This document shows positions 299 to 21,492 of a stretch of DNA of 64,000 nucleotides, in pieces. The first letter of the stretch is position 1, and each line of letters begins with the position of its first letter. Source of the stretch: an uncultured Gammaproteobacteria bacterium (lineage in GTDB: Bacteria > Patescibacteriota > Microgenomatia > Levybacterales > UBA12049); contig CAZWXQ010000004.1 in assembly GCA_964637955.1 (NCBI GenBank), forward strand, positions 81,296 through 145,295, written 5' to 3'. The notes beneath the pieces were generated by a model that saw only the letters and a list, made by a program, of their open reading frames with translations, did not search any database and had not been told where the DNA came from. Position numbers and translations under genes: made by a program.

Positions 299-707
299 GG
301 GGATGCATTGCATCGACAGACTAGTACATTAATAAATTGCAAGCTGACTTTGATTTACAGTCATAAAACAGAGATCAAAAACTAAATGCTAAAGCATTTA
401 AGACTGAGGCTCTAGCTTTTGCTAGATTCCTAAGTGGTCAACCAGTAGGTACTGGGGTAAGTAGTTACCTTCAGGCTTAAGGCTTTGACCTGTTCATTAC
501 ACCCTTCTCTTGGTGAGGAGTTTTGAGCATAAAATCAGCCAAGAAAACTGTAAGAAAAACGGTTAGGTTCTTATTGTATTTATAACCTCGACTTTATTTA
601 TGGATGTTAATTTTCAAAGAATAGAGTGATCAAAAAAATAATTAACTAAGCTTGTAGATGTTTAAAAATAAACTTTCTGGACTCGGGATCACTTCCCGAC
701 ATCTCCA
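299..707 (+). ncRNA. ssrA: tmRNA (SsrA)
   Basis: 5' GGGGATGCATTGCATCGACAG (compare E. coli GGGGCUGAUUCUGGAUUCGACGG). 3' GGACTCGGGATCACTTCCCGACATCTCC-A mirrors GGACGCGGGTTCAACTCCCGCCAGCTCC-A. Acceptor stem GGGGATG/CATCTCC includes the G3:U70 wobble (alanine identity). About 409 nt. Tag reading frame uncertain; the only long frame ends ...SSYLQA*. Confidence 0.75.
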
Positions 708-718
708 CAATTTAAAAA

Positions 719-742
719 CCCTCCATAATTGGAGGGTTTTTT
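719..742. terminator. bidirectional rho-independent terminator (ssrA / comFC)
   Basis: CCCTCCA-TAAT-TGGAGGG hairpin followed by T6 on + strand and by an A/T run on the - strand. Sits between the tmRNA 3' end and the comFC stop (751). Confidence 0.7.
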
Positions 743-750
743 ATTATGTC

Positions 751-1455
751 TTAATCTTCCTTTGCTAGTGCAACTGCCCAAACTTGCCTAACATTGCTGT
801 GTTTAAGAACACTAGCCGCTTCAGAAAAAGTAGAGCCGGTTGTTAAGACATCATCAACTAATACTACTCGCGTATTCTTAAAATTCGCTGAATGTTTTTT
901 TAATGTAAAAGCACCTTTTATATTTTCTCGTCTTTCTTTCTTATTTAATCCCACTTGAGACCTGGTATCGCGAGTTCTTTCGAGGCAATTTATAACTTTA
1001 ATGTCAAACTTTTTCCCTAGCTCCTTTGCCAATATTTCAGCTTGGTTATATCCTCTCTTTTTTAATTTTTTAGAGCTGAGCGGAATAGGAACCAAAATTA
1101 AATCCTTGCTTTCCTTTTCTATAATTTTTTCAAATTCTTCATAGTGGACTAACGATTCATAAAACAAATCGCCAAGAAGTGGCTTAAGGCTTGTCAAATG
1201 CTGATTATATTTAAATTGGTAAATTAACTTTTTAACAATTGGATTAAAAACAAGTGCAGTAAAAGAACCTTCAGCGCTGTATTTATTTAAACATCTGGGA
1301 TGCGTTAAGCCGTTGTAGCTTGGGGCGGTACAAACAAGACAAATATTTTTAGTGTCAAAAGAAAGCCTTGAAAAACAATCTGTACACAAGAATGCTCCAT
1401 ATTTCTTGCAATTTATGCAATATTTTGGAAAAAGCAAATCTAGTAAATTAGCCAT
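751..1455 (-). CDS. comFC: ComF family protein (double zinc-ribbon + phosphoribosyltransferase domain)
   Basis: N-terminal CxxC...CxxC pairs (CINCKK...CTDC...CLVC). C-terminal PRTase PRPP motif VVLVDDVLTTGST. Confidence 0.75.
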   Translation of the reverse strand: MANLLDLLFPKYCINCKKYGAFLCTDCFSRLSFDTKNICLVCTAPSYNGLTHPRCLNKYSAEGSFTALVFNPIVKKLIYQFKYNQHLTSLKPLLGDLFYESLVHYEEFEKIIEKESKDLILVPIPLSSKKLKKRGYNQAEILAKELGKKFDIKVINCLERTRDTRSQVGLNKKERRENIKGAFTLKKHSANFKNTRVVLVDDVLTTGSTFSEAASVLKHSNVRQVWAVALAKED

Positions 1456-1584
1456 AGGAAAATTTGTAATTAAAAATTTTCAATTTTTAATGAATTTTTA
1501 AAGATTTAATTTTAAAATTAATACTTCATTTCAAATTTCAAATTATAAATTTCAAATTTATTATAGATCATCTATAATATTGCT

Positions 1585-2142
1585 ATGGCAAAAATTTTTA
1601 TTTTCAGACATGCTCAAAGCACTGATAATGTAACTCATACTTTTTCCGGCAAGAGAGACCCTGAGTTAACAGAAGAAGGAATTGAGGACGCAAAAAAAAT
1701 TAGAGATGAATTAAAAAATGAAAAAGTCACAAAAGCATACTGTGCCACAAATCAACGCACCAAACACACACTTGAAATAACACTCGAAAATCATACGGGA
1801 GTAACCATAATTGCAGATCCAAGAATTAGAGAGCGTGATTACGGTGATCTGACTGGACAAAATAAAGATGAGATCGCAAAAAAATTTCCGAAAGATTTCC
1901 CCCTTTGGCATAGAAGCTACGACGTTCCTCCACCAGGAGGAGAAAGCATAAAACAAGTTGAAGTAAGAGTTATGGAATTCTTAAATGAAATGATTCAAAA
2001 TCTAAGACAAAATGATATTGTATTCATTTGCGCAAGCGCAAATTCCATTAGACCTATGAGAAAACATTTTGAAAAAATGACTGATATTCAAATGGCTTCA
2101 TACGAAAACGAAAAAGGGAAAATCTATACCTACGATTTGTAA
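1585..2142 (+). CDS. histidine phosphatase family protein (phosphoglycerate-mutase-like)
   Basis: N-terminal IFIFRHAQS (RHG-type catalytic His motif); size and fold pattern of the PGM/histidine phosphatase superfamily. Confidence 0.65.
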   Translation: MAKIFIFRHAQSTDNVTHTFSGKRDPELTEEGIEDAKKIRDELKNEKVTKAYCATNQRTKHTLEITLENHTGVTIIADPRIRERDYGDLTGQNKDEIAKKFPKDFPLWHRSYDVPPPGGESIKQVEVRVMEFLNEMIQNLRQNDIVFICASANSIRPMRKHFEKMTDIQMASYENEKGKIYTYDL

Positions 2143-2225
2143 CATTTAGTCAAGTGTAAACTTTTTTCCATGCTTAATATTTTAATATCATCAAAAAAGC
2201 TGTCTTAAGCTACAATAATTCTATA

Positions 2226-3447
2226 GTGAAAACCATTTTTTGGCTTTTAATTATTGCTCTCATAGGTATTATTGTCTACTGCAATTCTTTATCTCTTGTT
2301 TTTAGATGGGACGACACATATCAGATAGTTAATGCGCCCTTTATCCATAAAGTAACAAATATCCCTTATATTTTTTTAACCAGCATTCACCACGTAGATA
2401 GCACCAATATTTTATTCGGATATTATTACAAGCCAATCATGTATAGTGCCTATGCTGTTCTTTACGCTATTGGAAACGGACACGTAGAAGCTTTTCACCT
2501 CACCCAAATTAGCCTGCATATTATAAATAGCATGCTGGTTTTTCTTATATTTAAAAGGTTCTTCTCTGAAAAAATTTCAGTATTACTTGCTCTCGTATTT
2601 CTGGTTCATCCAATCAATGAAGAGACCGTAGTCTATATTGCAAATCTGCAGGACACCTTATATTTCTTCTTCGGAACCGCCGCAATATATCTTATCCTCA
2701 AATGGAAACAAGAAAAACTTGGTCATGCAGTAATTGTGGGCGCACTTTTACTTCTATCTTGCTTGTCCAAAGAAGCGGGCGCGCTCTATCTCCTACTGGC
2801 CTTTTCATCAATCCTGCTTTTTATAAATAAGAGAAATGAAAAACGCTCTATTGGCATGCTCGCGATCGTAGGAGGAATATATCTAACTCTTAGAATGCTT
2901 GCTTCTACACATTATTTCACGCAGATGGAAATGACCTCAGCTTCGACACTTGCGCGATTAAAAAGCACCCCCTACGTACTAGGATTTTATATTCGAGAAG
3001 GTTTTATTCCAACAGATTTAATAACCCAACCTAAGCATTTTATAATCCCTCACATAAGCGGACAAGAATATTTTATTTCGGCAATTACCATTTTAGTCTT
3101 TTCATTATTTTGGATCGGTCTTGGGATATTTATTTGGAAGAAAAATAGAGAGAATTTTAAAGTTTTTCTTTTTTTTCTCAATATGGTTTTTACTTGGGAT
3201 TAGCTTGTATTTACAAATTTTTCCACTCGATCAATTTATTGCCAAACGCTGGTTTTATTTCCCACTGGCCGGACTCCTTGGTTTAGTTGGAATCGCTCTT
3301 AATTTATTGTCTGGAAGAATAAAAATTTCCAAAATTTTAACAGCAGCTCTTATCTTTATAATATTTATTTTTGGATTAAAAACTTACACTATGAATACTT
3401 ATTGGAAAAGTGATAATGTGCTAAAAGAGCATCTTTTACAAAAATAA
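2226..3447 (+). pseudogene. polytopic membrane protein (GT39/TMTC/DUF1736-like, FHLTQISLHIINSMLVF motif) split by a frameshift in a T6-C-T8 tract
   Basis: ORFs 2226..3203 and 3121..3447 are consecutive pieces of one multi-TM protein. The frame switches inside the homopolymer at about 3160-3176. Could equally be a sequencing error. Confidence 0.5.
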
Positions 3448-3612
3448 ACTTTATATGTAAGCTTTAGGCTTCAAATGATATAATACTCAAACGTTCCAAC
3501 ATCCTAGTAAAAATACGCAGTAATTTTAAAAGGAAAGTCCAATTTTTAGCTAATGGCTAATAACAAACGTGGAGGAGTCTCCCACAGGGATTCCTGCTAT
3601 TTATAGATATTT

Positions 3613-3702
3613 GGAGGAGTCGCATAGCTGGTCCATTGCGGTGGGTTGCTAACCCGCTGAGCGTGAATAACGCTCACATGAGTTCGAATCTCATCTCCTC
3701 CG
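3613..3702 (+). tRNA. tRNA-Ser (anticodon GCU), type II
   Basis: Acceptor GGAGGAG/CTCCTCC, anticodon stem GTGGG/CCCGC with loop TTGCTAA, long variable arm, T-arm ATGAG-TTCGAAT-CTCAT, discriminator G. Confidence 0.85.
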
Positions 3703-3804
3703 CACTTCGAAAGCAACAGCTCAAGCTGAGGCTCTTGAAGTGGAGAGATGAGACGAGAAGTCAGGCGCTACAAAGTAGCGGCAATCCTGAGTGAAGACGA
3801 AGGA

Positions 3805-3821
3805 AATCTCATCTCCTCCGC
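3805..3821 (+). repeat. 17-bp direct repeat of the tRNA-Ser(GCU) 3' end (AATCTCATCTCCTCCGC), att-site-like remnant
   Basis: Identical to 3687-3703 inside the tRNA, 118 bp downstream. A 5' tRNA-like fragment (GGAGGAGTCTCCC) also sits upstream at about 3572-3584. Confidence 0.6.
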
Positions 3822-3958
3822 CAAAATTGAAAATGATATAATTCCTCTACGTTCTCATCGTTCTTGCTGAAATTCTGAAAGAATTTCAAGACGAAAATCC
3901 AATGAAAGGCTGAAATTGTAAGCAAAGCGAGCAATGAAGGCGCGAAATTGTGATTTGA

Positions 3959-4043
3959 GGAGGAGTCGCATAGTGGCCTAGTGCAGCGGTTTACTAAACC
4001 GCCAAATCGCAAGATTTCGCGAGTTCAAATCTCGCCTCCTCCG
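3959..4043 (+). tRNA. type-II Ser-like tRNA with non-canonical anticodon loop TTACTAA (apparent anticodon ACU)
   Basis: Acceptor GGAGGAG/CTCCTCC and D-arm identical to the Ser(GGA) copy. Perfect 5-bp anticodon stem GCGGT/ACCGC. Variable-arm hairpin AAATC-GCAA-GATTT. T-arm GCGAG-TTCAAAT-CTCGC. Discriminator G. Confidence 0.65.
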
Positions 4044-4066
4044 CAAATTGATATAGTTTATACCTA

Positions 4067-5119
4067 TTGACTAACACCAACATTTGGATTATACCAATAT
4101 TAAGTGTTATGAAAAGGTATCTGCCTCTTTTCATAGGAATTAGTGCCACTTTAATTGTAGCTTTTGCTTTTCTACTTCATTCGAAAAATGTTTCCGCAGC
4201 ATCAGCCCACATTGTCATTTCTCAAGTTCAAGTATCAGGAACTACCGCTAATGACGAATTCGTAGAACTTTATAATCCAACTTCGAATCCAGTAGACTTA
4301 ACCGGATGGAGATTAAGACGCGAAAGCTCATCTGGCGGATCACCATCAAATCTTGTATCAGCCATGTCTGGGATAATTCCTGCCCATGGATATTTTCTAA
4401 TAGCATTTCCCGCAGCCTACACTGGATCTGCAAATCCTGACTTAGTATATTCAGCGACATCAAGCGCAATTGCTGCCAACAACACGATTCTTCTTTATAG
4501 CGATGCTGGCATCACATTAGTTGATAAGGTAGGCATGGGAACAGCTCTAGATAATGAAACGTCGCCAGCCTTAGGACCTGACGCTGATGGCAGTATTCAA
4601 AGAAAATTAGATGACACCAACGGGCACGGACAAGATACAGACAATAATAGCGTAGATTTTGAAGTGCTTTTGGCTTCAACACCAAGAAATTCTAGCGTTT
4701 TGGCCCCTACTCCATCAGTAGCTCCAACCGATTCACCCACCTTAACGCCAAGTCCTACTCCTACCACTAGCCCAACAGCTACGCCAACCGTAACTCCCAC
4801 ATTAGCTCCAAGCGCTACGCCTTCACCCACAAATACACCATCTCCAACACCAACAATGACTCCTATGCCAACAGCTACGCCTACTATGACCCCTTCTCCA
4901 ACGGTTACAATGGCTCCAACCAGTACGCCAACTGTATCACCTACTACAGCGCCTGCATCTCCTACTCCAACAATGATTCCATCTCCTACTCCTACTAAAG
5001 GCGGCAAGGTTATAGCATATGGCCCGCTATTCACTTGTACTGTTAATTACAGAACATGGAACATCTTTGGCAGGACTCATTACTTCCCATATATAAACTG
5101 CGCTAGAACCTCAAATTAA
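4067..5119 (+). CDS. secreted/membrane-anchored lamin-tail-domain (LTD) protein with long Pro-Thr linker
   Basis: N-terminal hydrophobic anchor. LTD signature [25 protein letters not shown]...DLTGWRL. About 100-aa PT-rich repeat region (4690-5000). Start may be the internal M at about 4112. Confidence 0.6.
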
Positions 5120-5256
5120 GCTCGAGTTTTGATATAATACTTCCACGTTCAACTGTACTTTCTCAAAATTCGAAGAATTTTGAAGAGGAGAAACCGATTC
5201 AAAAGTCAAAGTTTTAGCAAAGCGACAAACGAAGACACGGAATCGTGTTTTGACGA

Positions 5257-5343
5257 GGAGAGTTCGCATAGTGGCCTAGTGCGTTCGCTTGGAAAGCGGA
5301 TATATTCGTAAGGATATCGGGAGTTCGAATCTCCCACTCTCCG
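5257..5343 (+). tRNA. tRNA-Ser (anticodon GGA), type II
   Basis: Acceptor GGAGAGT/ACTCTCC, anticodon stem TTCGC/GCGGA with loop TTGGAAA, long variable arm, T-arm GGGAG-TTCGAAT-CTCCC. The roughly 130-bp leader is homologous to the leader of the tRNA at 3959. Confidence 0.85.
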
Positions 5344-5361
5344 CACTTGAGTAGGCCCAGC

Positions 5362-5790
5362 TTAAGCTGAAATTAACAGCTCTTTGGCTTCGCGCCAAAC
5401 CTTTTTATCTGAAGAATAAGTAAGTCTTTTTTCTACCTCCTCTGGAGAGATCCATTCCACATTTTCCATTTCGTGGTCATGAATAGTTATATCTCCTCCT
5501 GTATATTCCATAATAAAGTAATAAACAGTCTTTTTTACTTTCTGCCCTTCCCAAGCAAACCAAAAAGTAACCGGCGTTAAGGCCGATAGAATCTTAGCAT
5601 CTGCCCCTGTCTCTTCTTTCACCTCACGGACAGCAGTGGCTTCTTTAGATTCTTTTTTATTATCCTCTTTATCGCCAATCAAGCCCTTTGGGAAAACCCA
5701 ACCGTGATGTTGTGAATGTTGGCTTACGAGAATTTTAAGATCTGGATCTTTTTTAAAAACTACTCCCCCTGCAGAAAATTGAAAAACCAT
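5362..5790 (-). CDS. NUDIX hydrolase
   Basis: Nudix box Gx5Ex7REVKEETG (GDKEDNKKESKEATAVREVKEETGAD). Confidence 0.8.
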   Translation of the reverse strand: MVFQFSAGGVVFKKDPDLKILVSQHSQHHGWVFPKGLIGDKEDNKKESKEATAVREVKEETGADAKILSALTPVTFWFAWEGQKVKKTVYYFIMEYTGGDITIHDHEMENVEWISPEEVEKRLTYSSDKKVWREAKELLISA

Positions 5791-5802
5791 GGGGAAATTA
5801 TA

Positions 5803-5967
5803 TCACTTCGCGAGCTCTTGCAGTATTTGCCTCGCAGTTCTACCTGAAACAATTAAGCTTTCAACAGTCATGGCTTCTGCCTCAACTACAGCCTCTGGGA
5901 CCTGAGAGAAATCAACAACTAAATTTTCTACAGCTTGTGTTTGAAATTTTTTAATTTCCTGTTGCAT
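5803..5967 (-). CDS. small hypothetical protein (54 aa), not in ORF track
   Basis: ATG preceded by a strong SD (AGGAGG, 8-nt spacer) on the minus strand. MQQEIKKFQTQAVENLVVDF...QELAK*. Confidence 0.4.
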   Translation of the reverse strand: MQQEIKKFQTQAVENLVVDFSQVPEAVVEAEAMTVESLIVSGRTARQILQELAK

Positions 5968-6295
5968 AATATATCCTCCTACTTATACTTATCGCTTTTT
6001 CTATATCTTTTTCATCCATTGCCTGTCGAAAATTTTTTAATACAAAATCTTTTTTTGCTTCAAAATAGCTAGGTGCATGCTTCACATAAATCTTCCTTAT
6101 TATCCTATGCTTATTACTTAAATCAAACATTTTTCTAAACATATCTTCGTAGTTTTCAAAAGGAAAGCTTCCCATAAAGTCCTTTGCGATTACTTTTGCT
6201 TCATCAAAGCTTATTTTTTTACTTTTATTTAAGACTGCAAGATTTGCTACTAAATCAATTTCAACTTCATTTACGAAATCATCAAATTTTTTCAT
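5951..6295 (-). CDS. hypothetical protein
   Basis: 114-aa ORF with coding-like composition in an operon-like minus-strand series; no recognisable motif. Confidence 0.45.
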   Translation of the reverse strand: MKKFDDFVNEVEIDLVANLAVLNKSKKISFDEAKVIAKDFMGSFPFENYEDMFRKMFDLSNKHRIIRKIYVKHAPSYFEAKKDFVLKNFRQAMDEKDIEKAISISRRIYYATGN

Positions 6296-6316
6296 ACATT
6301 TTCCTTCCTGTTGCAG

Positions 6317-6541
6317 CTATGAACCTGCAACTTCTGCTATCTGCTCGCTTATTTCACGTCCATTATCAATCTGCTCTTGTTCATTTTGAGCTGCTAACTC
6401 CGCTGACATCAATTGCTGCCTTAAGTCTTCTACCTGAGCTTCCTCTTGTTCAACTGTCATTTCTAGCTCTCTTACAACTTGAGGTGCTTCTTCAACTTCT
6501 GCTTCTAATTCTTCTTTTTTAAATTGTTTATCTGGTCTCAT
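6317..6541 (-). CDS. hypothetical acidic coiled-coil protein
   Basis: 74-aa E/Q-rich ORF immediately upstream of 5951..6295 on the same strand. Confidence 0.4.
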   Translation of the reverse strand: MRPDKQFKKEELEAEVEEAPQVVRELEMTVEQEEAQVEDLRQQLMSAELAAQNEQEQIDNGREISEQIAEVAGS

Positions 6542-6624
6542 TTATTTCTCCTTTCTGAAAACATTTTAGGACTTGAGGATCAATTGAGCTTGACATCAAC
6601 CTTACAGGAAAATTACAAAAATGA

Positions 6625-7302
6625 TTATTTTTTCTTCAAAACAAGCAGATGATTATCATAATGTATGTATTTATTCGGGTTTGAATAAATCTCAAAAGGA
6701 AACTTTTTATCTTCAAATAAAATTTCCCATTTTTCTTTTGGAAAAACATCTTTAATATCTTTAATCCATCTTTTAACCGGCGTGAAAGAAGGCTGCCAAT
6801 CGTATGGACAACAAATTATTAAAATTCCATTTTTTTCTAAAACTCTAAAAATCTCATCGACGATTTTCTGCGGATTTGAAGACCTATCAAGTAAATTCAG
6901 AGAAATAATTCTATTAAATTCACTGCTTGAAAAAGGCAATTTTGAAGCATCGGCAACCCTAAAATCTAAGAAACTTCCTTTTTTATAATCATATTTCAAA
7001 AATTCACTTTTATTTTCTCTAATTTTTTTGCACTCAGCTATGCAATTTTTGCCCTGATCTACTCCCATTCCCCTTCTTATATCAAAACTTGCGCTGTCAA
7101 AAAGAACCCTACCGAGCCCGCAGCCTAAATCTAAAACTGTTGAATCAGAGTTCAAATATTTTTTGAGCAACTTTTTTATATTTAAGTAGAAAGGCTCTGA
7201 TAAATATACTTTCTCAATATTTTTTAGATAAGGGCCGAATTGAATTTCGTAGTAAAATTCAATAAGTTCATTTTGACTATAGTAGTTTGATTTGAAAAAC
7301 AT
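6625..7302 (-). CDS. class I SAM-dependent methyltransferase
   Basis: Motif I VLDLGCGLGRVLFD; acidic residue after beta2; overall MTase-fold spacing. Confidence 0.75.
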   Translation of the reverse strand: MFFKSNYYSQNELIEFYYEIQFGPYLKNIEKVYLSEPFYLNIKKLLKKYLNSDSTVLDLGCGLGRVLFDSASFDIRRGMGVDQGKNCIAECKKIRENKSEFLKYDYKKGSFLDFRVADASKLPFSSSEFNRIISLNLLDRSSNPQKIVDEIFRVLEKNGILIICCPYDWQPSFTPVKRWIKDIKDVFPKEKWEILFEDKKFPFEIYSNPNKYIHYDNHLLVLKKK

Positions 7303-7370
7303 GCTTAGATTGCGGATTGCATCTCGCTAAAACCTAACCCGCCTTCGCAAAGACCTCAGCGAGGCGAAAG

Positions 7371-7455
7371 CGGAGGGTACAGGATTTGAACCTGTGAAGG
7401 ACTTGCGCCCTCGGGTTTTCGAAACCCGTGCAATTGGCCACTATGCGAACCCTCC
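7371..7455 (-). tRNA. tRNA-Ser (anticodon CGA), type II
   Basis: Reverse complement reads GGAGGGT-TC-GCATAGTGGCCAATTGC...GGGTT-TTCGAAA-ACCCG, long variable arm, ACAGG-TTCAAAT-CCTGT-ACCCTCC-G. Confidence 0.8.
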
Positions 7456-7507
7456 CCATTTAGCTTATAACCCTTAGCAACTAACCGTTAGCTTTCTAAA
7501 GATTTTG

Positions 7508-7580
7508 CGCGTCTGAGAGGAATCGAACCTCCAACCTCAAGATCCGCAATCTTGTGCTCTATCCTTTGAGCTACAGACGC
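7508..7580 (-). tRNA. tRNA-Arg (anticodon GCG as read; most bacteria use ACG)
   Basis: Reverse complement reads GCGTCTG-TA-GCTC...GAGC-A-CAAGA-TTGCGGA-TCTTG-AGGTT-GGAGG-TTCGATT-CCTCT-CAGACGC-G. Canonical 73-nt cloverleaf. Confidence 0.75.
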
Positions 7581-7768
7581 ATTTTCCAGCTGACCCGCCT
7601 GCCAAACGCATTAGCATCAGCTTTGCGGGCAGGACTACGAGGGCATGTTATGAAACAAGTTTATATATTTTAAGGGATTTGAGGCAAGATCGCAAACTAT
7701 GAGTTCTTTTCCAAAGGAAATTTCCAAATTTATTGACAGCACCTAACTATTGTGCGAATATTTAGGAA

Positions 7769-8089
7769 ATGGATCTTGAATCTGTAGAAAAAGAGCTCCT
7801 GGAACTGATAGTAAAACACCTGAAGGATAATAAAATAACTGCTGTTGATGCACAGAATCAAGCAAAAGAGTTTTTAAATCTGCTTCCCGTTACCGACCAA
7901 GCAGATTTACTTAATAAATTAAAAGTGTTGGGCGATAAATATGAAGAGTCAAATGAAGTTTATTTGGATGAACTTCAAAAACACTCCGCAAATGAAAGAG
8001 ATAAAGCTCTTGACCAAATGCGAAGCCACATAAAATCAGGAAATATTGAGGAGGCGATAAATGCAGCTAAATCAATTCAAAAAAGTTGA
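7769..8089 (+). CDS. hypothetical protein
   Basis: 106-aa helical ORF preceded by TTGACA...GAATAT promoter-like elements (7733-7762). Confidence 0.5.
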   Translation: MDLESVEKELLELIVKHLKDNKITAVDAQNQAKEFLNLLPVTDQADLLNKLKVLGDKYEESNEVYLDELQKHSANERDKALDQMRSHIKSGNIEEAINAAKSIQKS

Positions 8090-8121
8090 CAGAGCCTGGA
8101 TATTTGTTATTAGATTAAATC

Positions 8122-9858
8122 ATGCAACCAACTCCTGAAGGAACACCAGCTCCACCAATTACACCTGAAGCGCAACCAGTAACTGCGCAAACTGCTCATC
8201 TCCCCGAAGCAAAAAAGCTGGGAACAGATGCTGCGAAGATGAGAGTTTCTGTTGATAGGAGAGTTGTAGATGCAGGAAACACGAGTGCAATTGATAAAAA
8301 AGCCGCAGAAGAACAAGTTTATGAAGAAATATTTAGAGAACAACAGACAGCAATAGAAGCTGCGCTCGAAGCAGACCCAGTCATGATTGATGCGCGAGCC
8401 AATGGCTGGTCACCTGAAGCAGAAAAAAATGCCTTATTAGACCCAGGAGATAGAGTTGGGGCAAAATCCTTGTCTGAGGCGGGAGCTCGTGTCAACGAAG
8501 CGCGACAACGACATGCTGTAGCAAAATGGGGCAAATTTGCCCAAGAAAATCCTCAAACAGCTCAAAAATATGCAGAACAGAACCCAGATGTTAGACATTT
8601 TATAGATACATACAAAGTACAGAAATTGGCAGAAGCCAGAATATTTGTGGATCGAGCATATCAACGATTAAAAAGCCTGGATCCTGAGTACATAGCGGCA
8701 CAACAACTTGGTGGAAAAATTGGAGCAGCTGAAGCTCAATTAAGACCTGCGCTAGAAGCTAAGGCTTTTGATGAATTAGTTGAAGCAGATCCAGATGCAA
8801 CAAGATTTCTTTTAGATTACGGCGATGAACCTGGCTTAGCAGAGATACCCAAAATAAAAGCAGCCTACGAGAGATATTTCGTTAGGCAAGAAACCAGAAA
8901 AGCAGAAATTGCAACCGAAACAGCTAGAATAGCGCAGGAAAAGGGTGCTGAAGAAGCTCTAAAAGCTTTAGCCTCTGACGAAGCAAAAAAGAAAAGAAGC
9001 GAGGCAGCAAAAAAAGGAGCAGCTACAAAAGCCGCGAATAAAGAAGCAGCCAAAAGAAGGGCTGAGCAAGAAGACCCTAGAAACATACCAATTGGTCCTG
9101 ATGGAAAACCTATGACATGGGACGAGGTAGATATAGCCTTGGGATTTAAACCTCCAAAACAAGAAAATTTACCAATTGGTCCTGATGGAAAACCTATTTC
9201 ATGGGACGAAGCAGCAAGAGTTTTGGGATACGGAGCTGGTGCAGACGGATCAAAACCTGGCATAGCTCCAGCTGAAGTACAGCCTGCTGCAGCGGCTAAA
9301 ACTCCAGAACCTCCTACAACTGTCCGCCCAGATGCAGGAAGAAGAATCGAACCTAAAATAATAAATGGTGTGGCATATCATCCAGACCATTTACCGGATG
9401 CGCACTCAAGGCCTGATGGAACAATTGAGTTTAGAGGTGGAGTAAAATTTATAGGTGAAGCTCCAACTCCCATAGACTCAAGAAGAGAAAAACCGCAAGC
9501 TCCCGCCAGTGAAAGATCTCTTCAGGTTGCAGTCACAATAGCAAATTTAGAGCGAAACTTACTAACAGCAAAAGACAGGAAACTTTCTAAGCCTCAAATA
9601 GAGGCACTTTCAAAAAAGCTCCAAGAAGCAAAATCAGCGTTTTTTGCCTTACAAAATGAAGTCGCCACTGAAGGAATTATCGCAAATGTTTCAAGTGAGC
9701 AAAATCTTGAAAAGCGAGCGACAACAGCTAAGAGTATCGTTGCAAATGAAAGAGATCCTAAAAAAAGACTTAATTTATTAAATGCATTTATCGCAGCTGG
9801 AGTTCTTATAGCAGGAACTACATTTGTAGGAGCAAGCGAAGCCAGAAGAGTCGCTTAA
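8122..9858 (+). CDS. Ala/Glu/Lys-rich coiled-coil protein with C-terminal TM anchor and internal tandem repeat
   Basis: 578 aa. Tandem 16-aa repeat LPIGPDGKP(M/I)(T/S)WDE at 9075-9215. C-terminal hydrophobic helix LLNAFIAAGVLIAGTTFVGA. Looks GC-richer than flanks by eye. Confidence 0.6.
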   Translation: MQPTPEGTPAPPITPEAQPVTAQTAHLPEAKKLGTDAAKMRVSVDRRVVDAGNTSAIDKKAAEEQVYEEIFREQQTAIEAALEADPVMIDARANGWSPEAEKNALLDPGDRVGAKSLSEAGARVNEARQRHAVAKWGKFAQENPQTAQKYAEQNPDVRHFIDTYKVQKLAEARIFVDRAYQRLKSLDPEYIAAQQLGGKIGAAEAQLRPALEAKAFDELVEADPDATRFLLDYGDEPGLAEIPKIKAAYERYFVRQETRKAEIATETARIAQEKGAEEALKALASDEAKKKRSEAAKKGAATKAANKEAAKRRAEQEDPRNIPIGPDGKPMTWDEVDIALGFKPPKQENLPIGPDGKPISWDEAARVLGYGAGADGSKPGIAPAEVQPAAAAKTPEPPTTVRPDAGRRIEPKIINGVAYHPDHLPDAHSRPDGTIEFRGGVKFIGEAPTPIDSRREKPQAPASERSLQVAVTIANLERNLLTAKDRKLSKPQIEALSKKLQEAKSAFFALQNEVATEGIIANVSSEQNLEKRATTAKSIVANERDPKKRLNLLNAFIAAGVLIAGTTFVGASEARRVA

Positions 9859-10418
9859 GATTTTTCCAAAGGGAAATTTTTATATAGCCAATCCCCAAGA
9901 TTCTCCTGGAAATTTGGCTTTACATATTCTCTGAAAGGCAAATATGGAAGTATTGCATGTTTTAACTGGTCTCTATGAAGCTCCCCGAGAGTCAGAATAA
10001 TTTCACCAGGCAAAAATGACTGGGTACGAATATGAAGTGTATCTTGTCCATCATATCTTCTGAAATAAAAGTCATAAAGCTCCTGCCAAAGATAAAAATG
10101 ATCTTCTATCGTTACTCCTTCTGTAGAAATCTTATATCTAAAAGTTTTTGGCTCAATTGAAGTAAGAGCAAATCCTGCAAAAACAAGAGAGACTATTAAG
10201 ACCATAAAGAGATATTGAGAAAATAAAAACAATATCACTTCAATAAGAAGCGTAATGAGAAGAGCAGTCGTATAAAACTGCTTACTTCTTTTTCGAAATG
10301 GTCTTCCTGGAGCATCCCAAGATAAAAGTGTTCTTACGTCGTGATATGCATGCTCAGTGTGATGAGAGCTTTCATGACTTCGCATTTCAGAGGATTTTTC
10401 GACAACTTCTTTCTCCAT
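9855..10418 (-). CDS. hypothetical membrane protein (2 TM + soluble domain, bacterial-PH-like)
   Basis: Two adjacent hydrophobic helices followed by a roughly 100-aa domain; His-rich N-terminus. Confidence 0.5.
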   Translation of the reverse strand: MEKEVVEKSSEMRSHESSHHTEHAYHDVRTLLSWDAPGRPFRKRSKQFYTTALLITLLIEVILFLFSQYLFMVLIVSLVFAGFALTSIEPKTFRYKISTEGVTIEDHFYLWQELYDFYFRRYDGQDTLHIRTQSFLPGEIILTLGELHRDQLKHAILPYLPFREYVKPNFQENLGDWLYKNFPLEKS

Positions 10419-10551
10419 AATTTAACTGTAACCGAAGATTAATTCTTCGTCAAGCAAAGTAATAGCGTTAGCATCATTTGTTTGATAAAATATACTCCTG
10501 ATAAAACAAGGAGAAGTTCTAAAAAAAACTCCCTATTTATCAAAATGTTGT

Positions 10552-10638
10552 GGAGAGGTCGCATAGTGGACTAGTGCGGCTGTCTTGAAAACAGCTGTGG
10601 GTGCAAGCCTACCGCGAGTTCGAATCTCGCCCTCTCCG
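10552..10638 (+). tRNA. tRNA-Ser (anticodon UGA), type II
   Basis: GGAGAGG-TC-GCATAGTGGACTAGTGC-G-GCTGT-CTTGAAA-ACAGC, long variable arm, GCGAG-TTCGAAT-CTCGC-CCTCTCC-G. Confidence 0.85.
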
Positions 10639-10691
10639 CATTCCCTAAATCCTTGACTTCTTTTTTAAAATAAAGCAAACTTAAATTAGCT

Positions 10692-12272
10692 ATGATTTCT
10701 GCCCGATCTACCTTGCTTGATTTTAGCTTGTTTCGAAATAAGTTAATTCTAGGATTAATTTTCTTTGTAACACTTTTATTTATATTTTCTTTCCAAATCG
10801 CACATAAATCATTCGCATACGAATCGCAGAATACTTATTCAGATTCAACTTCAGATGTAAACGTCGGAAATTCATCTGAAAACGCACTGGGAACAAGTCC
10901 CGATGTTCCAAATAACTTAAGCAGCTTCGTTCAAATTCTCATGATAGAAAGCTTATCCGCAGCAAACTGCCAACTCGCAGGATTTGATCCCACAAGACCA
11001 AATCAAAAATGTCTTGGCATAAATCCCCGCACTGGAAGAATTGGATACGTCGAAAATGGCGGTGGCGTAATAGGTTTTATGGGAAAAGCGATCGACTCTA
11101 CTCTTGTTCCTCCGATTAATTCAACTCAATATGTAGCATATCTAAAAAATAATTTTGGGATCGTAAAATCAACATATGCTGCAGATGAAGCATCAGTCAA
11201 TCCATGTATAAACAGTAATCGCGGATTGGGCTTTTGCTCTATTCTTCCCATCCTAGACTTATGGGTAGCAATGAGAAACATAGTTTATCTGATTCTTATT
11301 CTTATTTTCATAGTAATAGGAGTCGGAATTATGCTTAGAATTCATATTGATCCTAGAACTGTAATGACAGTCCAGAATCAGATTCCGAAAATCATAGGCG
11401 GAATCATCGTAATTTCCTTTTCCTTTGCCATAGCAGGATTTCTCATAGATATAATGTGGGTAACTACATACTTATTTGCAAGCGTCTTAGGCGGAGCCAC
11501 GGGACTAAACAATGAATCTATGGTAAGTATAGTTAGGGCGGCAAATCCTATTGATGCAGCCAACGTAATTGGAAACGGCGGAGTAATTGACGTAGCAGCA
11601 AAAGCCTCTCAAGCCTTGGCAGAGCTTGTCTCCATGGCATTTACGAACCAGGATTTAGGAGTTCTTGATGACATAGTCCATCCTCTTGTAAGCGCAGCTG
11701 CATTTTTCGTATTTGTTATTGCTATTATCGTAGCTCTCATGAGACTTTGGGTATCATTAATTATTACTTATGTGATGATAATTTTAGATATAGTGTTTGC
11801 GCCGTTTTGGATTCTTGCTGGAGCACTTCCAGGCTCATCTGCAGGAATCGGCGCATGGTTTAAGGATATGCTTGCGAATTTAGCAGTATTTCCTGTAGCA
11901 ATTGCTTTCTTTATTCTTGCAAACTTCTTTGTGGATGCATTCTCTAACACTAATTTCCCTCAAAACGAAATGGCTCCTCCGCTTCTTGGCGGAACCAATT
12001 CTTCAGCTGTTGCCGCCATAATTGGCCTTGGATTTTTACTCATGCTTCCAAATTTACTAACAACTACAAAAGGATTCTTTAAGGCTCCAAAGATTAACTT
12101 CGGAAACATCATGGGACCAGTGGGAGTTGGAACAGGAGTAGTCTTTGGTTCACCAAAGAGATTTAGTAGCGGAGTACTTAATGAAACAACTAGAATGAGA
12201 TATGTAAATGGTCATCCTACTGAGCCAGGTGGAGTCAAGAGAGTAATTAGAATTTTCCGCGGCGGCCACTAA
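10692..12272 (+). CDS. polytopic membrane protein, candidate VirB6/TrbL-like T4SS channel component
   Basis: 526 aa with about 7-8 hydrophobic helices and Gly-rich loops after an N-terminal secreted domain. Placement at the edge of the T4SS island. Assignment is by architecture only. Confidence 0.5.
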   Translation: MISARSTLLDFSLFRNKLILGLIFFVTLLFIFSFQIAHKSFAYESQNTYSDSTSDVNVGNSSENALGTSPDVPNNLSSFVQILMIESLSAANCQLAGFDPTRPNQKCLGINPRTGRIGYVENGGGVIGFMGKAIDSTLVPPINSTQYVAYLKNNFGIVKSTYAADEASVNPCINSNRGLGFCSILPILDLWVAMRNIVYLILILIFIVIGVGIMLRIHIDPRTVMTVQNQIPKIIGGIIVISFSFAIAGFLIDIMWVTTYLFASVLGGATGLNNESMVSIVRAANPIDAANVIGNGGVIDVAAKASQALAELVSMAFTNQDLGVLDDIVHPLVSAAAFFVFVIAIIVALMRLWVSLIITYVMIILDIVFAPFWILAGALPGSSAGIGAWFKDMLANLAVFPVAIAFFILANFFVDAFSNTNFPQNEMAPPLLGGTNSSAVAAIIGLGFLLMLPNLLTTTKGFFKAPKINFGNIMGPVGVGTGVVFGSPKRFSSGVLNETTRMRYVNGHPTEPGGVKRVIRIFRGGH

Positions 12273-12285
12273 TCTTTTAGCTTTA

Positions 12286-15200
12286 TTATACGTCTTCTGA
12301 TTTTAATCCTTCTCCTACTGTCTTTGTGGTAGCATTATATCCTTCAAAGAATATCCAGAGCATGAAGAAAAGAAGTCCTCTGTAAACCTGAAACCTTGTT
12401 CTGTCTTTAGTTCTGGTACGGGACAACTCCTTCATCTCTTCCCAAAGTTCCTCCCCATGGCTACCCACAAAATCTGTCTTGTGATGATCTAAAAACAGGA
12501 GCATGTCATCGTTATTAAACGCTGGGGCTTCAGGTCCGAAAATTTCTTGGAGCTCATTAACTGGCCCTTTATTTGGCTTTCTTTTCCAATCCATCATTTC
12601 ATACCAAGTCCTAGCTACGCCTTTATCTTTTTCTGTTAATGTTCCCATCAGCTTATAACTTCCAAAAGTATGACGGAATACTAAGGCTGCAACTCCCGGA
12701 TCTCTATATGCTTTAACTGTAGCTGCAGCTGCTAGGGCGGCTTTTAATTTTTCTTCTTCAGACTCGGCTGTTAAAAATGTTATATAGCTTTTATGAGTTT
12801 CGGCTGCAGCAGTCGCATCATTAAATGTTCTCTTATATGCGTCTCCCCCGCTTTCTGGCGAAAGCTTTTTAGATAGTGCAGTTAGTCCCATTTCTAAGTC
12901 TTCAAACTCCATCCTGTCCAATAGCCCATCATCGACTGTAAATGTACGTAAGTTTACTTGTGCAAATCTAGAATCCTTCATTAATTTCTTAATCGTATCT
13001 GGATTTCCCGCAAATTGTTGTAATTTACCAAATAAAGTCGCTATTTTCTGAGCCTGGTCTGGACCTTTTGAAGCAAGCATGTTATCAAGAAGCTTTGCAT
13101 ACTCAGGGCGAGACATTATTTGGGAAAAATCTATTTGCTCAGGAAGCCTATTATCTTTACCGCTATACCCTAGCTCTCTAATAAGCCTTAGTGAGGCTCC
13201 ATAATCTCTTTTAAAAACATCATATAAAGTCAAATGATTTGCCTCATCAGCAGCTGTTAATTTTATTCCAGCCTCTGTAAACGCTCTGTTTGCAGCTTCT
13301 ATCTCATGCTGATGATGATCTCCATGCTCCCTAAACATTCTTACAACATCCTCTGGTTTGTATCTAGCAATCTGCTTCCATACCTTAACTCTTTCTTCGT
13401 CTTTATACTTATCCTTATCTCCTTGACTCATTCCTTTCCACCCTGGCGTATTGTAATAAGTACCATTCTGAAGAACTCTAAGCCTCATAAATAATCCGAA
13501 TTCTTTTGCCCTATCCAGTGCTTGCTGCCTATCTGCTTCGCTCAATTGACTTATGTGGGTGAGATTTCTTTGCTTTGCTATGCGATATTGCATATTTTGG
13601 TCAATTTGCTTCATAAACTCATCAAGTTTCCATCCAGATGAATACCAGTCATTTACCTGCATAAGATCTTTCATAAGCTCAGATCCATAATCCTCAAGAG
13701 CAGCCCTAGTATAATCTGGCTTAGCATCACTTCCCTTAACATGCTCATCCTCATGCTGTTTAATATGTGGATCTATTTTTATTCTCTCTTGTGCCCAAGT
13801 CTCAAAATTAATTCCTTTTTTTCTCAATGTAGATTCTGCATATCTTCTTTTTATTGCATTAAAAAATAACTGTTGTTCATGATTTAACGTTCCAAATTTA
13901 TCAATAAGAAGCTCTTCCATATTAAACATCTGAAATAGTGCTGAAGGATCTGCTAAAATTCCCTGAAGGTTAACGCCATTATCAAGAGCATTTCCACGAG
14001 CTACTATTACAGCCTCTCTCTGAGATGCTACGAAATGGTCATAAGCCGTTCTAACTGCTCTTCGTATATTTTCTTTAGCAAGAGTATTCATTCTTGAATC
14101 ACTCATGACTCCCATGTCTATTGAGGCTGGGTTTAAACCTATTTCTGCATACAAATCTTGATTTCCTGAAGCCATTATTAGCTGCGCATATTCGTCTATT
14201 ACTCTTGACTGAATTTTTGAGTGCTCTACGGGGGTCATGTGCTGATTTGCTAAAGTTATTCTTGTATCATCATATATTTCATTTATCCTGTTATGCATCC
14301 TGTTAACTAAACCACCCTCAAAACTAAGAGTATTCATGATTCCATGAGTACCAAGCGTTCCTGCAATTCCCCCTATACCTTCAAGGTTCTTCTGCTGAAC
14401 AGCTGAGCGGGCAAACATGGTATAAAGTCTATTTGTAAATTCTTCAGCAAACCTGTTAAGCTCTTTTGGATTTCTACGTCCATATTCAGTATTTGTAAGC
14501 CAACTTAAAGCTCTTTCATGAAGCTGCTGCGCACCCTGAACCAGAGGAGAACTCTGCTCCATTCCCTCTGCTGAAAAGTTGTAAATTTTATTCATTTGGC
14601 CCTCAAGCCATTTCATTGGATCTTCTGAAAGTTCGTCAAAATCCTTAGTAGTAAGATAAAGCCTAAAAGTATCTCGACTATCAAAATCTGATTGCTTAAT
14701 CTGTTCACCTATTGCGTCTTCTAGTAACTTCAATTCCTGAGATAATTCAGTTGCCTGTCTTTGCTTATCTCCTGAAGAAGTATCTATTATTTTTTGAACC
14801 GCCTTATTATACTCACCTATTAATACGGGGTCGTGGATTAAATTGTTTTTTGCAAAAGCCAACTTAACAACCATATTTTTTACCTCAGGATCGGAGTATT
14901 TATCTGCATCAAAAATCTGTATTTGTTGCGCATCAGGAGCCTCTTGCTCTGGATTTCTAGGCCTTCCCCCAGCCTGCTGTCCCTGAGGCCTTTGCTGCTT
15001 TTGTTGTCTTGGATTAAAAATGCCCTTTAACCTATCTTCTGCTAAGCGCTTAATAGTAACATCGGGATTCTGAAGCAATTTCGTGAGCTCAGCGACTTCT
15101 GCAACCTGCTCGGGAGAAAGATCAGCCACATCTGATGAACCTGCCCTTGCTGCCTCTCGAGCACGTATTTGATCCGCGGCCTGTCTTAATTCAGCCGTAC

Positions 15201-15500: not shown

Positions 15501-15548
15501 CTAAAAATTATTTACTATTTTACATTTACGATTTATCATTTAAATAAT

Positions 15549-21463: not shown

Positions 21464-21492
21464 AGAAACTGCCCTTCTCTAGAACTCCCCTC

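Follow-up and report, generated by a model that had tools for sequence, protein, structure and literature searches.

The 64-kb stretch of DNA analysed here (the window) carries five class-II tRNA-Ser genes, with anticodons GCU, ACU, GGA, CGA and UGA, and a tRNA-Arg(GCG). All were called by both ARAGORN and Rfam, in agreement with the initial annotation, which had read five Ser-type tRNAs, one of them with anticodon ACU, from the sequence. The genes and their flanking elements are, in order:

3476..3570, + strand: promoter-like extended -10 TGATATAAT (3476-3484) and an incomplete copy of the Ser-tRNA leader specific to this lineage, both ahead of Ser(GCU); weak model match of 23 bits
3571..3612, + strand: leader element directly before Ser(GCU), made of a copy of tRNA nt 1-9 (GGAGGAGTC), a hairpin TCCC-ACA-GGGA and an A/T-rich tail
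3613..3703, + strand: tRNA-Ser(GCU) with a 'type 2' body (ARAGORN, Rfam); predicted reader of AGC, and of AGU by wobble
3704..3821, + strand: ~100-nt insertion together with a direct repeat, 17 nt long, of the 3' end of the tRNA (3687-3703, 3805-3821)
3834..3958, + strand: promoter-like TGATATAAT (3834-3842) and structured leader (~116 nt) of the ACU gene; model match of 94.8 bits
3959..4044, + strand: tRNA-Ser(ACU), anticodon 3993-3995, loop UUACUAA, G73 at 4043, CCA not encoded
5130..5256, + strand: promoter-like TGATATAAT and the GGA-gene leader, a homologue of the leader before ACU; model match of 122.8 bits
5257..5344, + strand: tRNA-Ser(GGA) (ARAGORN, Rfam)
7370..7455, - strand: tRNA-Ser(CGA) (ARAGORN, Rfam), same sequence in relative L204
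7507..7580, - strand: tRNA-Arg(GCG) (ARAGORN, Rfam), partner of Ser(CGA)
10552..10639, + strand: tRNA-Ser(UGA) (ARAGORN, Rfam), same sequence in relative L204

The Rfam tRNA scores of the four Ser genes other than ACU lie between 50.4 and 55.7 bits, and the Ser(CGA) plus Arg(GCG) cluster is kept in Patescibacteria and Chloroflexota. The mature Ser(GGA) tRNA equals its ortholog in L204; across the ARAGORN calls identity is 97.8%, the sole difference being a 3' CA counted in L204. Ser(GCU) is only 79% identical to its L204 ortholog. The cluster had been annotated as starting at 3572, a position that turned out not to be a tRNA end: it falls inside the leader element 3571-3612, which carries a copy of nt 1-9 of Ser(GCU). 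This element was flagged as terminator-like and is almost invariant between the window and the relatives L204 and L205; the leader region before it (3476..3570) is likewise conserved in L204. Elements analogous to 3571-3612 precede Ser tRNAs in other Microgenomates loci. The insertion at 3704..3821 corresponds to a gap in L204 and L205; no other copy of it was found, and its predicted fold is stable (z=-4.66).

The ACU gene has the structure and identity elements of a serine tRNA

Ser(ACU) scores 51.8 bits against RF00005 (gathering score 29), over its full length and with no non-canonical pair. Its anticodon loop is GGUUUACUAAACC (UUACUAA as RNA), which places A34-C35-U36 at 3993-3995; ARAGORN returned the same anticodon, and the Rfam alignment bears out the perfect stem that had been noted around this loop. 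The other features ascribed to the gene were also found: a discriminator G, a D-arm common to the window's ACU and GGA genes, and a long variable arm, with a 5-bp stem and a GCAA loop. The E. coli Ser identity set, reportedly described by Normanly in 1992 and Asahara in 1994, comprises G73, G1-C72, G2-C71, A3-U70 and C11-G24. In its covariance-model score, long variable arm, identity set and an anticodon matching a Ser codon, the ACU gene has what characterizes a bacterial class-II tRNA-Ser. The A at position 34, for which a check against independent data had been proposed, is identical in a separate Logan assembly (run SRR14271336), which matches the window at 100% over 681-5302.

tRNA-Ser(ACU) is conserved across Microgenomates

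We scanned species-representative genomes with a pattern that held the D-arm fixed; at least 120 loci were obtained, and 8-kb pieces of each were read. The ACU tRNA is present in at least 37 other loci, one of them with two copies, giving at least 38 distinct sequences; 38 scan sequences were aligned with the window's own (n=39). The informatively named ACU loci are, among the matches listed, almost all from Microgenomates (Levy-, Gottesman-, Woese- and Pacebacteria). Standard pairs fill 99.7% of the cells of this alignment and compensatory changes, on both sides, occur at 19 of the 26 pairs, values reached by none of 500 shuffles; slid controls pair in 38-56%. In the variable arm all 5 pairs covary, with 98.5% of cells paired. 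G1-C72, G2-C71, C11-G24, G18G19, G73, the entire anticodon loop and its two loop-proximal stem pairs are invariant in the 39 sequences, the T-loop is the canonical TTC[G/A]AAT in all of them, and A3-U70 is present in 38.

In many ACU loci, among the matches listed, 3-20 nt separate the gene from Ser(UGA) or Ser(GCU), a spacing that suggests co-transcription, and it is found in operon-like arrays alongside ordinary Ser tRNAs. Ser(GCU) coexists with it: 256 nt upstream in the window, and at 16 of the 37 other loci among the matches listed. Comparison with orthologous loci, another check proposed earlier, found the ACU gene identical in L204 and L205, two syntenic relatives from other samples, where the GGA, CGA and UGA tRNAs are also identical to the window's; proteins there show 72-90% identity to those of the window, and flanks ~70%. 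Judged from these alignments, tRNA-Ser(ACU) is conserved across the ultra-small Microgenomates (CPR). We found no published description of a natural Microgenomates tRNA-Ser(ACU) in the literature.

The ACU tRNA is related to GCU tRNAs of other lineages

Compared with the other Ser tRNAs in the same genome, the ACU tRNA shows no more than 70-73% identity; with the ACU tRNAs of four unrelated species it shares 89-94% (three species) or 82% (the fourth). Among G34 tRNAs it comes closest not to GGA but to the Ser(GCU) found in Chloroflexota and in other CPR lineages, and the same tRNA body with G34 occurs in Saccharibacteria, Berkelbacteria, Doudnabacteria and Sungiibacteriota. Mean identity of the ACU tRNAs is 0.76-0.77 to outgroup GCU tRNAs versus 0.68 to GCU tRNAs of the same locus, the D-arm resemblance to the outgroup being partly built in because the scan pattern fixed this arm. 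Some ACU tRNAs have the same acceptor, D, anticodon and T arms as a Chloroflexota or non-Microgenomates CPR Ser(GCU): between the ACU tRNA of locus L004 and the GCU tRNA of the Chloroflexia locus L023, nt 34 and the variable arm are the sole differences. This pair, together with the wider match of the body, points to an origin of the ACU tRNA by an ancient G34A change in a GCU-type tRNA. An ancestral GCU-type Ser tRNA common to Chloroflexota and other CPR would thus have acquired A34, the gene would have passed vertically along the Microgenomates branch of Patescibacteria (CPR), and a second, more divergent GCU tRNA would have been retained beside it.

The initial annotation had proposed instead that a leader of about 130 bp shared with Ser(GGA) betrays a local duplication of that gene followed by an anticodon change. 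The homology of the leaders held, with 87 of 131 aligned positions matching (z=10.2 against shuffles), but the duplication did not, given the 70-73% identity to the paralogs. The motif TGATATAAT-N6-ACGTTC has exactly three occurrences, upstream of GCU, ACU and GGA (0.19 expected), and the leader of 120-130 nt, which precedes three Ser genes, is confined to this genus-level lineage. Local recombination is visible in the flanks of the Ser genes; the shared leader is a predicted promoter/leader module and reflects flank recombination, not the origin of the tRNA.

AGU codes for serine and AGA is the main arginine codon

AGT198 of DnaA encodes the conserved Ser of the ITSEEF motif, and AGA/AGG codons stand at conserved Arg residues (SDRPP, RLxSRF). 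Between orthologs, AGT is freely interchanged with AGC and also replaced by TCN; AGA likewise trades places freely with AGG, and also with Lys codons. As read from such conserved positions, the code is standard (AGU = Ser, AGA/AGG = Arg), and the conserved DnaA site agrees with the earlier prediction that the ACU anticodon decodes AGU as Ser. AGA is the commonest Arg codon, with 410 of the 704 Arg codons in the window and 1696 occurrences versus 717 of AGG in the ACU loci, which upholds the earlier warning that inosine at 34 would endanger AGA. The recommended AGU/AGC codon-usage analysis gave an AGU share of AGY of 0.606 in ACU loci versus 0.506 in other CPR loci of similar G+C, a modest shift obtained on crude ORF sets with kinship ignored.

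A34 is probably left as adenosine in a dedicated AGU reader

Given the observed gene, its structure, its conservation and covariation, the synteny, the kinship to GCU tRNAs and the standard meaning of AGU, AGA and AGG, we think it probable that the locus encodes a functional elongator tRNA-Ser(ACU), vertically inherited and GCU-derived, which reads only AGU with an undeaminated A34. Once expressed, this tRNA would be charged by SerRS, an enzyme blind to the anticodon, through G73, the acceptor pairs, C11-G24 and the long variable arm. It would read AGU through a Watson-Crick A34:U3 pair and AGC would fall to Ser(GCU), so that the AGY half-box would be divided between two dedicated tRNAs. Most likely A34 would escape deamination, since inosine in its place would read AGA, the main Arg codon, as well. 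The loop of TadA substrates, C32-U33-A34-C35-G36-A37-A38, is not matched by that of the ACU family, which is U32-U33-A34-C35-U36-A37-A38 in all 39 sequences. In E. coli, TadA is blocked by changes at positions 32, 37 or 38, and an orthogonal ACU tRNA in a tRNA-Arg2 loop context was not deaminated and read AGU at 9.4% and AGG at 0.36%, with AGC and AGA below detection (PMC11066159). Overexpressed Ser-tRNA(ACU) raised the growth of E. coli (bioRxiv 10.64898/2026.05.15.725136). No CDA-fold deaminase motif or domain was found within the 64-kb window, no Arg(ACG) was seen in any of the Patescibacteria loci fetched, which are genome fragments, and the Arg tRNA near the Ser cluster is GCG.

An unlikely alternative, which nevertheless carries some weight, is that TadA or a relative deaminates A34, giving a tRNA-Ser(ICU) that would be the main AGY decoder, reading AGU and AGC, with Ser(GCU) as an auxiliary and competition from tRNA-Arg(UCU) limiting the misreading of AGA. 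The ancestral body persists in the ACU tRNA, which is unchanged between relatives, and Ser(GCU) diverges fast (100% versus 79% to L204), a pattern that also fits ACU as the main AGY reader, for instance as ICU. In addition, partial conversion of A34 to inosine is seen in E. coli for some two-codon-box tRNAs, Phe(AAA) and His(AUG), and a TadA homologue is present in 88% of the bacteria with non-ACG A34 tRNAs. Set against this, I:A misreading would be costly where AGA is the commonest Arg codon, the loop departs from the TadA substrate at 32 and 36, and the ACU tRNA stayed undeaminated in E. coli; the nearby Arg(GCG), with no Arg(ACG) among the Patescibacteria fragments fetched, is a weak hint of decoding without TadA, and the lack of a deaminase motif in the window, itself a genome fragment, weighs as lightly. 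A related and rather doubtful reading would make the ACU tRNA, not Ser(GCU), the principal AGY decoder, its A34 converted to inosine or to an undescribed modification, which would explain why the ACU body is ancestral and invariant while Ser(GCU) drifts. If true, wobble-adenosine editing would extend into a split codon box in a bacterial lineage, and Ser/Arg ambiguity at AGA would be tolerated, or its suppression would have evolved.

Some Gram-positive bacteria have specialised non-proteinogenic isoacceptors, and the ACU tRNA is redundant next to Ser(GCU); it might hence, once charged with Ser, act mainly off the ribosome, for instance by donating its amino acid to the envelope or to lipids, or in a regulatory or decoy role, its anticodon being tolerated since decoding is rare. 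We consider this very unlikely, since the anticodon loop and its two loop-proximal pairs, which a non-decoding tRNA could change freely, are invariant in the 39 sequences, G18G19 and the T-loop are those of a canonical tRNA, ordinary Ser tRNAs share operon-like arrays with the gene, and AGU usage is not depressed. Reassignment of AGU or another AGN codon, with the ACU tRNA bearing the new meaning, recalls the Arg-codon reassignments that a Codetta survey reportedly found in some CPR and low-G+C bacteria, but is highly improbable here: the tRNA has the complete Ser identity set, DnaA has AGT at a conserved Ser and AGA/AGG at conserved Arg, and orthologs exchange AGT with AGC/TCN and AGA with AGG/Lys codons. 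The ~130-nt homologous leader of ACU and GGA and the recombination in local flanks would suit a recent duplicate of Ser(GGA) or Ser(GCU) whose anticodon mutated by chance, or else a pseudogene or an error of sequencing or assembly at 34. This explanation, to which we give next to no credence, is refuted by the identical independent assembly, the unchanged gene in two syntenic relatives from other samples, the at least 37 further loci with extensive covariation, and the 70-73% identity to genomic paralogs; the perfect cloverleaf, the identity in L204/L205 and the covariation in 38 further sequences in themselves rule out a pseudogene or a recent anticodon-shift duplicate.

Comparison with known A34 tRNAs

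Like bacterial tRNA-Ser(GCU) of the serV type, the ACU tRNA belongs to class II, has G73, a long variable arm, G1-C72/G2-C71/A3-U70 and C11-G24, and would be charged by SerRS without anticodon reading. Unlike Ser(GCU), it has A34 and not G34 and coexists with a second, divergent GCU tRNA; with this A34 it is expected to read AGU only, versus AGC and AGU for GCU. With tRNA-Arg(ACG), the near-universal bacterial A34 tRNA, used as ICG after editing by TadA, it has in common an encoded A34 followed by C35. However, Arg(ACG) occupies a four-codon box, where inosine is harmless, and its loop has C32/G36 versus U32/U36; the Microgenomates lineage, in contrast to this system, has Arg(GCG) beside the Ser cluster and no Arg(ACG) in the loci fetched.

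Unmodified A34 is known from reduced systems, namely Mycoplasma tRNA-Thr(AGU) and yeast mitochondrial tRNA-Arg(ACG) (cited in PMC11066159). The ACU tRNA would resemble these in that A34 stays adenosine in a small A+T-rich genome, but they serve four-codon family boxes, where superwobble leaves the amino acid the same. The ACU tRNA does not fit this Mycoplasma Thr(AGU)-type superwobble class: Ser and Arg divide the AGN box, and the G34 isoacceptor Ser(GCU) is kept. Lactobacillales have extra A34 tRNAs, Leu(AAG) and Thr(AGU), with broadened use of TadA (PMC8007984, PMC13249217), and offer a clade-wide, inherited, non-Arg(ACG) A34 in A+T-rich bacteria; there, four-codon boxes are concerned, the G34 isoacceptor is replaced and Leu(AAG) is inosine-modified, whereas ACU belongs to a two-codon box and exists in addition to the G34 tRNA. 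The engineered E. coli Ser-tRNA(ACU) and orthogonal tRNA(ACU) have the same anticodon and are tolerated or even beneficial, undeaminated and AGU-specific (bioRxiv 10.64898/2026.05.15.725136; PMC11066159). These are laboratory constructs, whereas the Microgenomates ACU is a natural gene kept across a deep lineage.

Significance for decoding in Microgenomates

Since Crick's wobble paper, the near-absence of A34 tRNAs has been treated as a rule. The literature sustains the view of the initial annotation that A34 outside Arg(ACG) is exceptional in bacteria: a 2021 review describes A34 as universally missing from the Ser-Arg split box (PMC8007984), and a 2026 study, reporting fifteen ANN anticodons as absent across bacteria, looked for the reason by engineering them in E. 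coli (bioRxiv 10.64898/2026.05.15.725136). Neither source covers CPR genomes. A tRNA-Ser(ACU) beside a G34 isoacceptor is a natural counter-example in the codon-box class thought least tolerant, and would be a clean example of one decoding job divided by two duplicated tRNAs. It is relevant to annotation and to tRNA-based measures of codon adaptation in CPR genomes. Microgenomates, a deep and species-rich lineage with an inherited tRNA-Ser(ACU), thus provide a natural case for asking why A34 tRNAs are avoided elsewhere, and what in these bacteria lets A34 persist: candidate differences are TadA status, the use of Arg(GCG), codon usage and ribosome features.

A serine tRNA gene with anticodon ACU

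We called tRNA genes in the window with ARAGORN, which reports six, and scored them with the Rfam tRNA model (gathering score 29).

tRNA genes of the window, as called by ARAGORN
3613-3703, + strand: tRNA-Ser(GCU)
3959-4044, + strand: tRNA-Ser(ACU)
5257-5344, + strand: tRNA-Ser(GGA)
7370-7455, - strand: tRNA-Ser(CGA)
7507-7580, - strand: tRNA-Arg(GCG)
10552-10639, + strand: tRNA-Ser(UGA)

The initial annotation had described the second of these genes as a Ser-type tRNA with an adenosine at anticodon position 34 (A34), and both programs agree: ARAGORN assigns it to serine with anticodon ACU (3993-3995), and the Rfam model gives the loop UUACUAA and marks zero non-canonical pairs. The gene scores 51.8 bits, the other Ser genes 50.4-55.7. 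Its serine-type traits include G73, a long variable arm (5 bp with a GCAA loop) and a D-arm that is the same as in the GGA, CGA and UGA copies. SerRS ignores the anticodon, and the sequence of the tRNA carries the serine identity set in full. A tRNA-Sec or an allo-tRNA was rejected, since the acceptor stem has the canonical 7 pairs, the T stem has 5 pairs and the anticodon is not the complement of a stop codon. A34 is also found in a separate Logan assembly, which is 100% identical to the window over 681-5302; it was built from run SRR14271336, of the study that also includes run SRR14271332. This assembly and the ACU gene of two syntenic relatives rule out an assembly error at this position.

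The ACU gene is unchanged in syntenic relatives

The phosphoglycerate-mutase-like protein of the window clusters with a JGI member, which led us to these two relatives, L204 (a 177.7-kb contig of JGI 3300050184) and L205 (Logan SRR35794994), identical to each other over their common region. In both, all six tRNAs of the window are present and their order is unchanged. Orthologous proteins are 72-90% identical between the window and these relatives and intergenic DNA about 70%, yet the ACU tRNA, like the GGA, CGA and UGA tRNAs, is identical, which reveals strong purifying selection on the ACU gene. In contrast, Ser(GCU) is 79% identical (3613-3703 against 10759-10850 in L204) and Arg(GCG) 71% (7507-7580 against 13712-13786), which suggests replacement or relaxed constraint for these two genes alone. 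A separate metagenome scan used the LTD protein encoded between the ACU and GGA genes, a member of a multi-copy family; none of its 80 loci was syntenic or carried an ACU tRNA, and the scan is uninformative on relatives.

Ser(ACU) recurs across Microgenomates

The ACU tRNA of the window is no one-off. We scanned species-representative genomes once with a pattern made of the fixed Ser-type D-arm and the loop TTNCTAA, and at least 120 loci matched. Among the matches listed, 37 loci have the loop TTACTAA, and ARAGORN reports tRNA-Ser(ACU) for each; one of them holds a second ACU gene, whose differing D-arm the pattern missed. The informative names among the listed ACU loci are Microgenomates-group taxa (Levyibacteriota, Gottesmanbacteria, Woesebacteria, Pacebacteria and "Microgenomates group"), and other labels are "Patescibacteria group" (10), Minisyncoccia (1) and Acidiferrales (1). 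Twelve third-party metagenome-assembled genomes with an ACU tRNA among these matches are labelled Gammaproteobacteria or Pseudomonadales. Three so labelled (L028, L043 and L070) have a Microgenomates-like Arg(GCG)-Ser(CGA) arrangement, with Arg(CCG) next in two, and since at least three such genomes share it these labels are doubtful. A34 is absent from the listed matches labelled Saccharibacteria, Paceibacterota, Berkelbacteria, Doudnabacteria and Sungiibacteriota, all of which have G34.

Within the 39 distinct ACU sequences, standard pairs fill 99.7% of cells and both partners have changed in 19 of 26 pairs; these pairing and covariation values were reached by 0 of 500 shuffles, and slid controls pair at 38-56%. 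The anticodon loop, G73, G1-C72, G2-C71 and C11-G24 are invariant. In the 8-kb loci, the ACU gene often has Ser(UGA) or Ser(GCU) as a neighbour at a distance of 3-20 nt, and Ser(GCU) was found in 16 of the 37. A scan of viral contigs for the ACU anticodon arm gave 0 matches, and there is thus no sign of a phage-borne ACU tRNA.

Origin of the tRNA body

The initial annotation holds for the identity of the gene and its expected decoding; its account of the origin, a local duplicate of Ser(GGA) with a changed anticodon, does not. With each of the four paralogs in its own genome the window ACU tRNA shares 70-73% identity, and with ACU tRNAs from species in which no further DNA similarity is detectable it shares 82-94%. 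The ACU tRNA of one locus (L004) and the Ser(GCU) of a Chloroflexia genome (L023) are the same in every arm and differ only at position 34 and in the variable arm. The exact ACU-type context (A26, GCGGT/ACCGC, C45) occurs in seven Chloroflexota GCU tRNAs, and the ACU-type body with G34 occurs in Saccharibacteria, Berkelbacteria, Doudnabacteria, Sungiibacteriota and one Paceibacterota record. In Microgenomates, the GCU tRNAs found alongside ACU are built differently and vary in their body, which resembles that of GCU tRNAs from several Paceibacterota and "Patescibacteria group" records. With outgroup GCU tRNAs picked by the same D-arm pattern, which selects for D-arm likeness and leaves the anticodon stem and T-arm unselected, the mean identity of ACU tRNAs is 0.76-0.77 to outgroup GCU and 0.68 to own-locus GCU, or 0.86 against 0.68 over the first 45 nt only. 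The simplest reading of these comparisons is that the Microgenomates ancestor had two GCU-type genes, that the conservative copy may then have fixed G34A, and that the two copies would thereafter have split the AGY box between them.

Shared leaders and flanks

The local homology that had been noticed between ACU and GGA is real, as is local recombination, though only the flanks are involved and the tRNA body is not. Of 131 aligned positions, the ACU and GGA leaders have 87 in common (z=10.2), and the motif TGATATAAT-N6-ACGTTC is found in three places, upstream of GCU, ACU and GGA, with 0.19 occurrences expected by chance. In the window and L204, an extended -10 box and a roughly 120-nt leader stand upstream of each of these three genes; the leader, unusually long for a bacterial tRNA gene, has a conserved hairpin and a long-range stem.

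Ser leaders, before GCU, ACU and GGA
3476-3570, window: leader before Ser(GCU)
3834-3958, window: leader before Ser(ACU)
5130-5256, window: leader before Ser(GGA)
10602-10716, 10868-10987 and 12193-12310, L204: Ser leaders

The GCU and GGA 3' trailers are also similar, and from these shared flanks we infer that promoter, leader and trailer modules spread among the Ser genes of a genus-level lineage. A covariance model of the leader (R1) matched only the window and L204 in 760 kb of window and loci, with nothing else at E<0.01, and in a permissive Rfam search over 3300-5450 neither the leaders nor the insertion described below gave a credible match. Rather than a widespread RNA family, the leader is a genus-level module.

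Another element, of 45-60 nt, precedes many Ser-tRNA genes of Microgenomates (ACU, UGA, GCU, CGA); it begins with an exact copy of the first 9-11 nt of the tRNA (GGAGAGGTCG) and continues with a short G+C hairpin and an A/T-rich stretch, often with AATCAA immediately before +1. It lies upstream of Ser tRNAs at 3571-3612 in the window and in L013, L028, L035, L040, L071, L075 and L006, as a tandem double copy in L040 and L071. The window copy precedes Ser(GCU) and is near-invariant relative to L204 while the surrounding leader varies. Possible explanations for the element are a small insertion that duplicated its target, a signal for processing or attenuation, and a decoy for the 3' acceptor strand. 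Downstream of Ser(GCU), at 3704-3821, lies an insertion of about 100 nt that L204 and L205 lack. The insertion is bordered on both sides by a direct repeat, 17 nt of the tRNA 3' end (3687-3703 and 3805-3821), and its left part resembles the GGA gene trailer. Within the insertion, the tRNA 3' end recurs in inverted orientation, which explains why 3742-3820 folds like a cloverleaf with a 12-bp closing stem followed by GCCA (z=-4.66). BLAST with the insertion found no second copy in the window or loci.

The chromosome and its genetic code

The window is part of a Patescibacteria (CPR) chromosome around the replication origin; its G+C content is 36%, and it encodes dnaA, dnaN, yidC, ruvABC, dnaG, rpoD, LeuRS and tmRNA, together with a type IV secretion cluster, LTD proteins and several 23S-IVS proteins. 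The origin region, about 30 kb away from the Ser-tRNA cluster, is marked by dnaN and dnaA (35802-38455, - strand) with yidC and a jag/KhpB-like gene (39187-40418). The tmRNA (299-710) scores 91.8 bits with Rfam and is unreported by ARAGORN; in L204, L063 and L101, too, the Ser-tRNA cluster has SmpB or tmRNA close by. Three 23S rRNA intervening-sequence (bAvd-like) protein genes are scattered (15465-15914, 17315-17767 and 27014-27394) in a region that also has type IV secretion components.

Type IV secretion components
19409-22829: T4SS pilin-like
27420-28766: PrgI
29627-31879: TraG/VirB4-like ATPase

The AGN box is read by the standard code. Alignment with the DnaA of B. subtilis and T. maritima places AGT198 of dnaA at the conserved Ser of the ITSEEF motif, and conserved Arg residues (SDRPP, RLxSRF, RELEG) are encoded by AGA and AGG. 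Comparison of the window with a close relative shows free exchange of AGT and AGC (at 6 of 21 and at 11 of 27 aligned codons) and exchange of AGA with AGG and Lys codons. A suppressor or reassignment tRNA was rejected on the grounds of this standard code.

Decoding of the AGY box

On sequence grounds, we expect AGU to be decoded by Ser-tRNA(ACU) through a Watson-Crick pair, and AGC by Ser(GCU). The alternative is that A34 is deaminated to inosine by TadA, the enzyme whose normal bacterial substrate is tRNA-Arg(ACG). This would be costly, since inosine would misread AGA, the commonest Arg codon of the window (410 of 704). The loop also argues against it, with U32...U36 in Ser(ACU) against C32...G36 in tRNA-Arg(ACG), and so does work in E. 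coli, in which a tRNA carrying ACU within the Arg2 loop is undeaminated and gave 9.4% at AGU and 0.36% at AGG, with AGC and AGA below detection; in the same study TadA was blocked by changes at positions 32, 37 or 38 (PMC11066159). The presence of Arg(GCG), with no Arg(ACG) among the Patescibacteria loci examined, is a further argument against inosine. No TadA-like deaminase was found in the 64-kb window, a part of the genome, by motif search or Pfam scans of all ORFs of at least 120 aa.

A larger role for Ser(ACU) is favoured by its invariance, against the fast evolution of Ser(GCU). Codon usage, which the initial annotation had proposed to examine, shows a weak shift: the AGU share of AGY is higher in ACU-bearing loci (0.606) than in other CPR loci of similar G+C (0.506), an excess relative to the other two-fold Y pairs with an odds ratio of about 1.4 when kinship is ignored.

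Arg(GCG) adjoins Ser(CGA), in many cases with Arg(CCG) next in line, in Patescibacteria and Chloroflexota loci (7507-7580, - strand, in the window; L028, L043, L054, L059, L063, L070; many Chloroflexota loci), and among the loci examined Arg(ACG) occurs only in one Planctomycetales and one Omnitrophota locus. A 2021 review lists tRNA-Arg(GCG) as the missing Arg anticodon of bacteria (PMC8007984). There are hints here of CGN decoding without TadA in Patescibacteria and Chloroflexota.

A GtRNAdb survey of 4047 bacteria found A34 tRNAs of two-codon boxes to be rare and leaves CPR unmentioned; the same study reports that overexpressed Ser-tRNA(ACU) improved the growth of E. coli (bioRxiv 10.64898/2026.05.15.725136). 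Our literature search found no description of a bacterial tRNA-Ser(ACU), no use of the term "SerACU" and nothing linking A34 or TadA with Patescibacteria. Within the limits of the literature searched, we regard a clade-wide bacterial tRNA-Ser(ACU) as undescribed. It is an ordinary serine tRNA in all respects but its lineage-conserved wobble adenosine in a split codon box.
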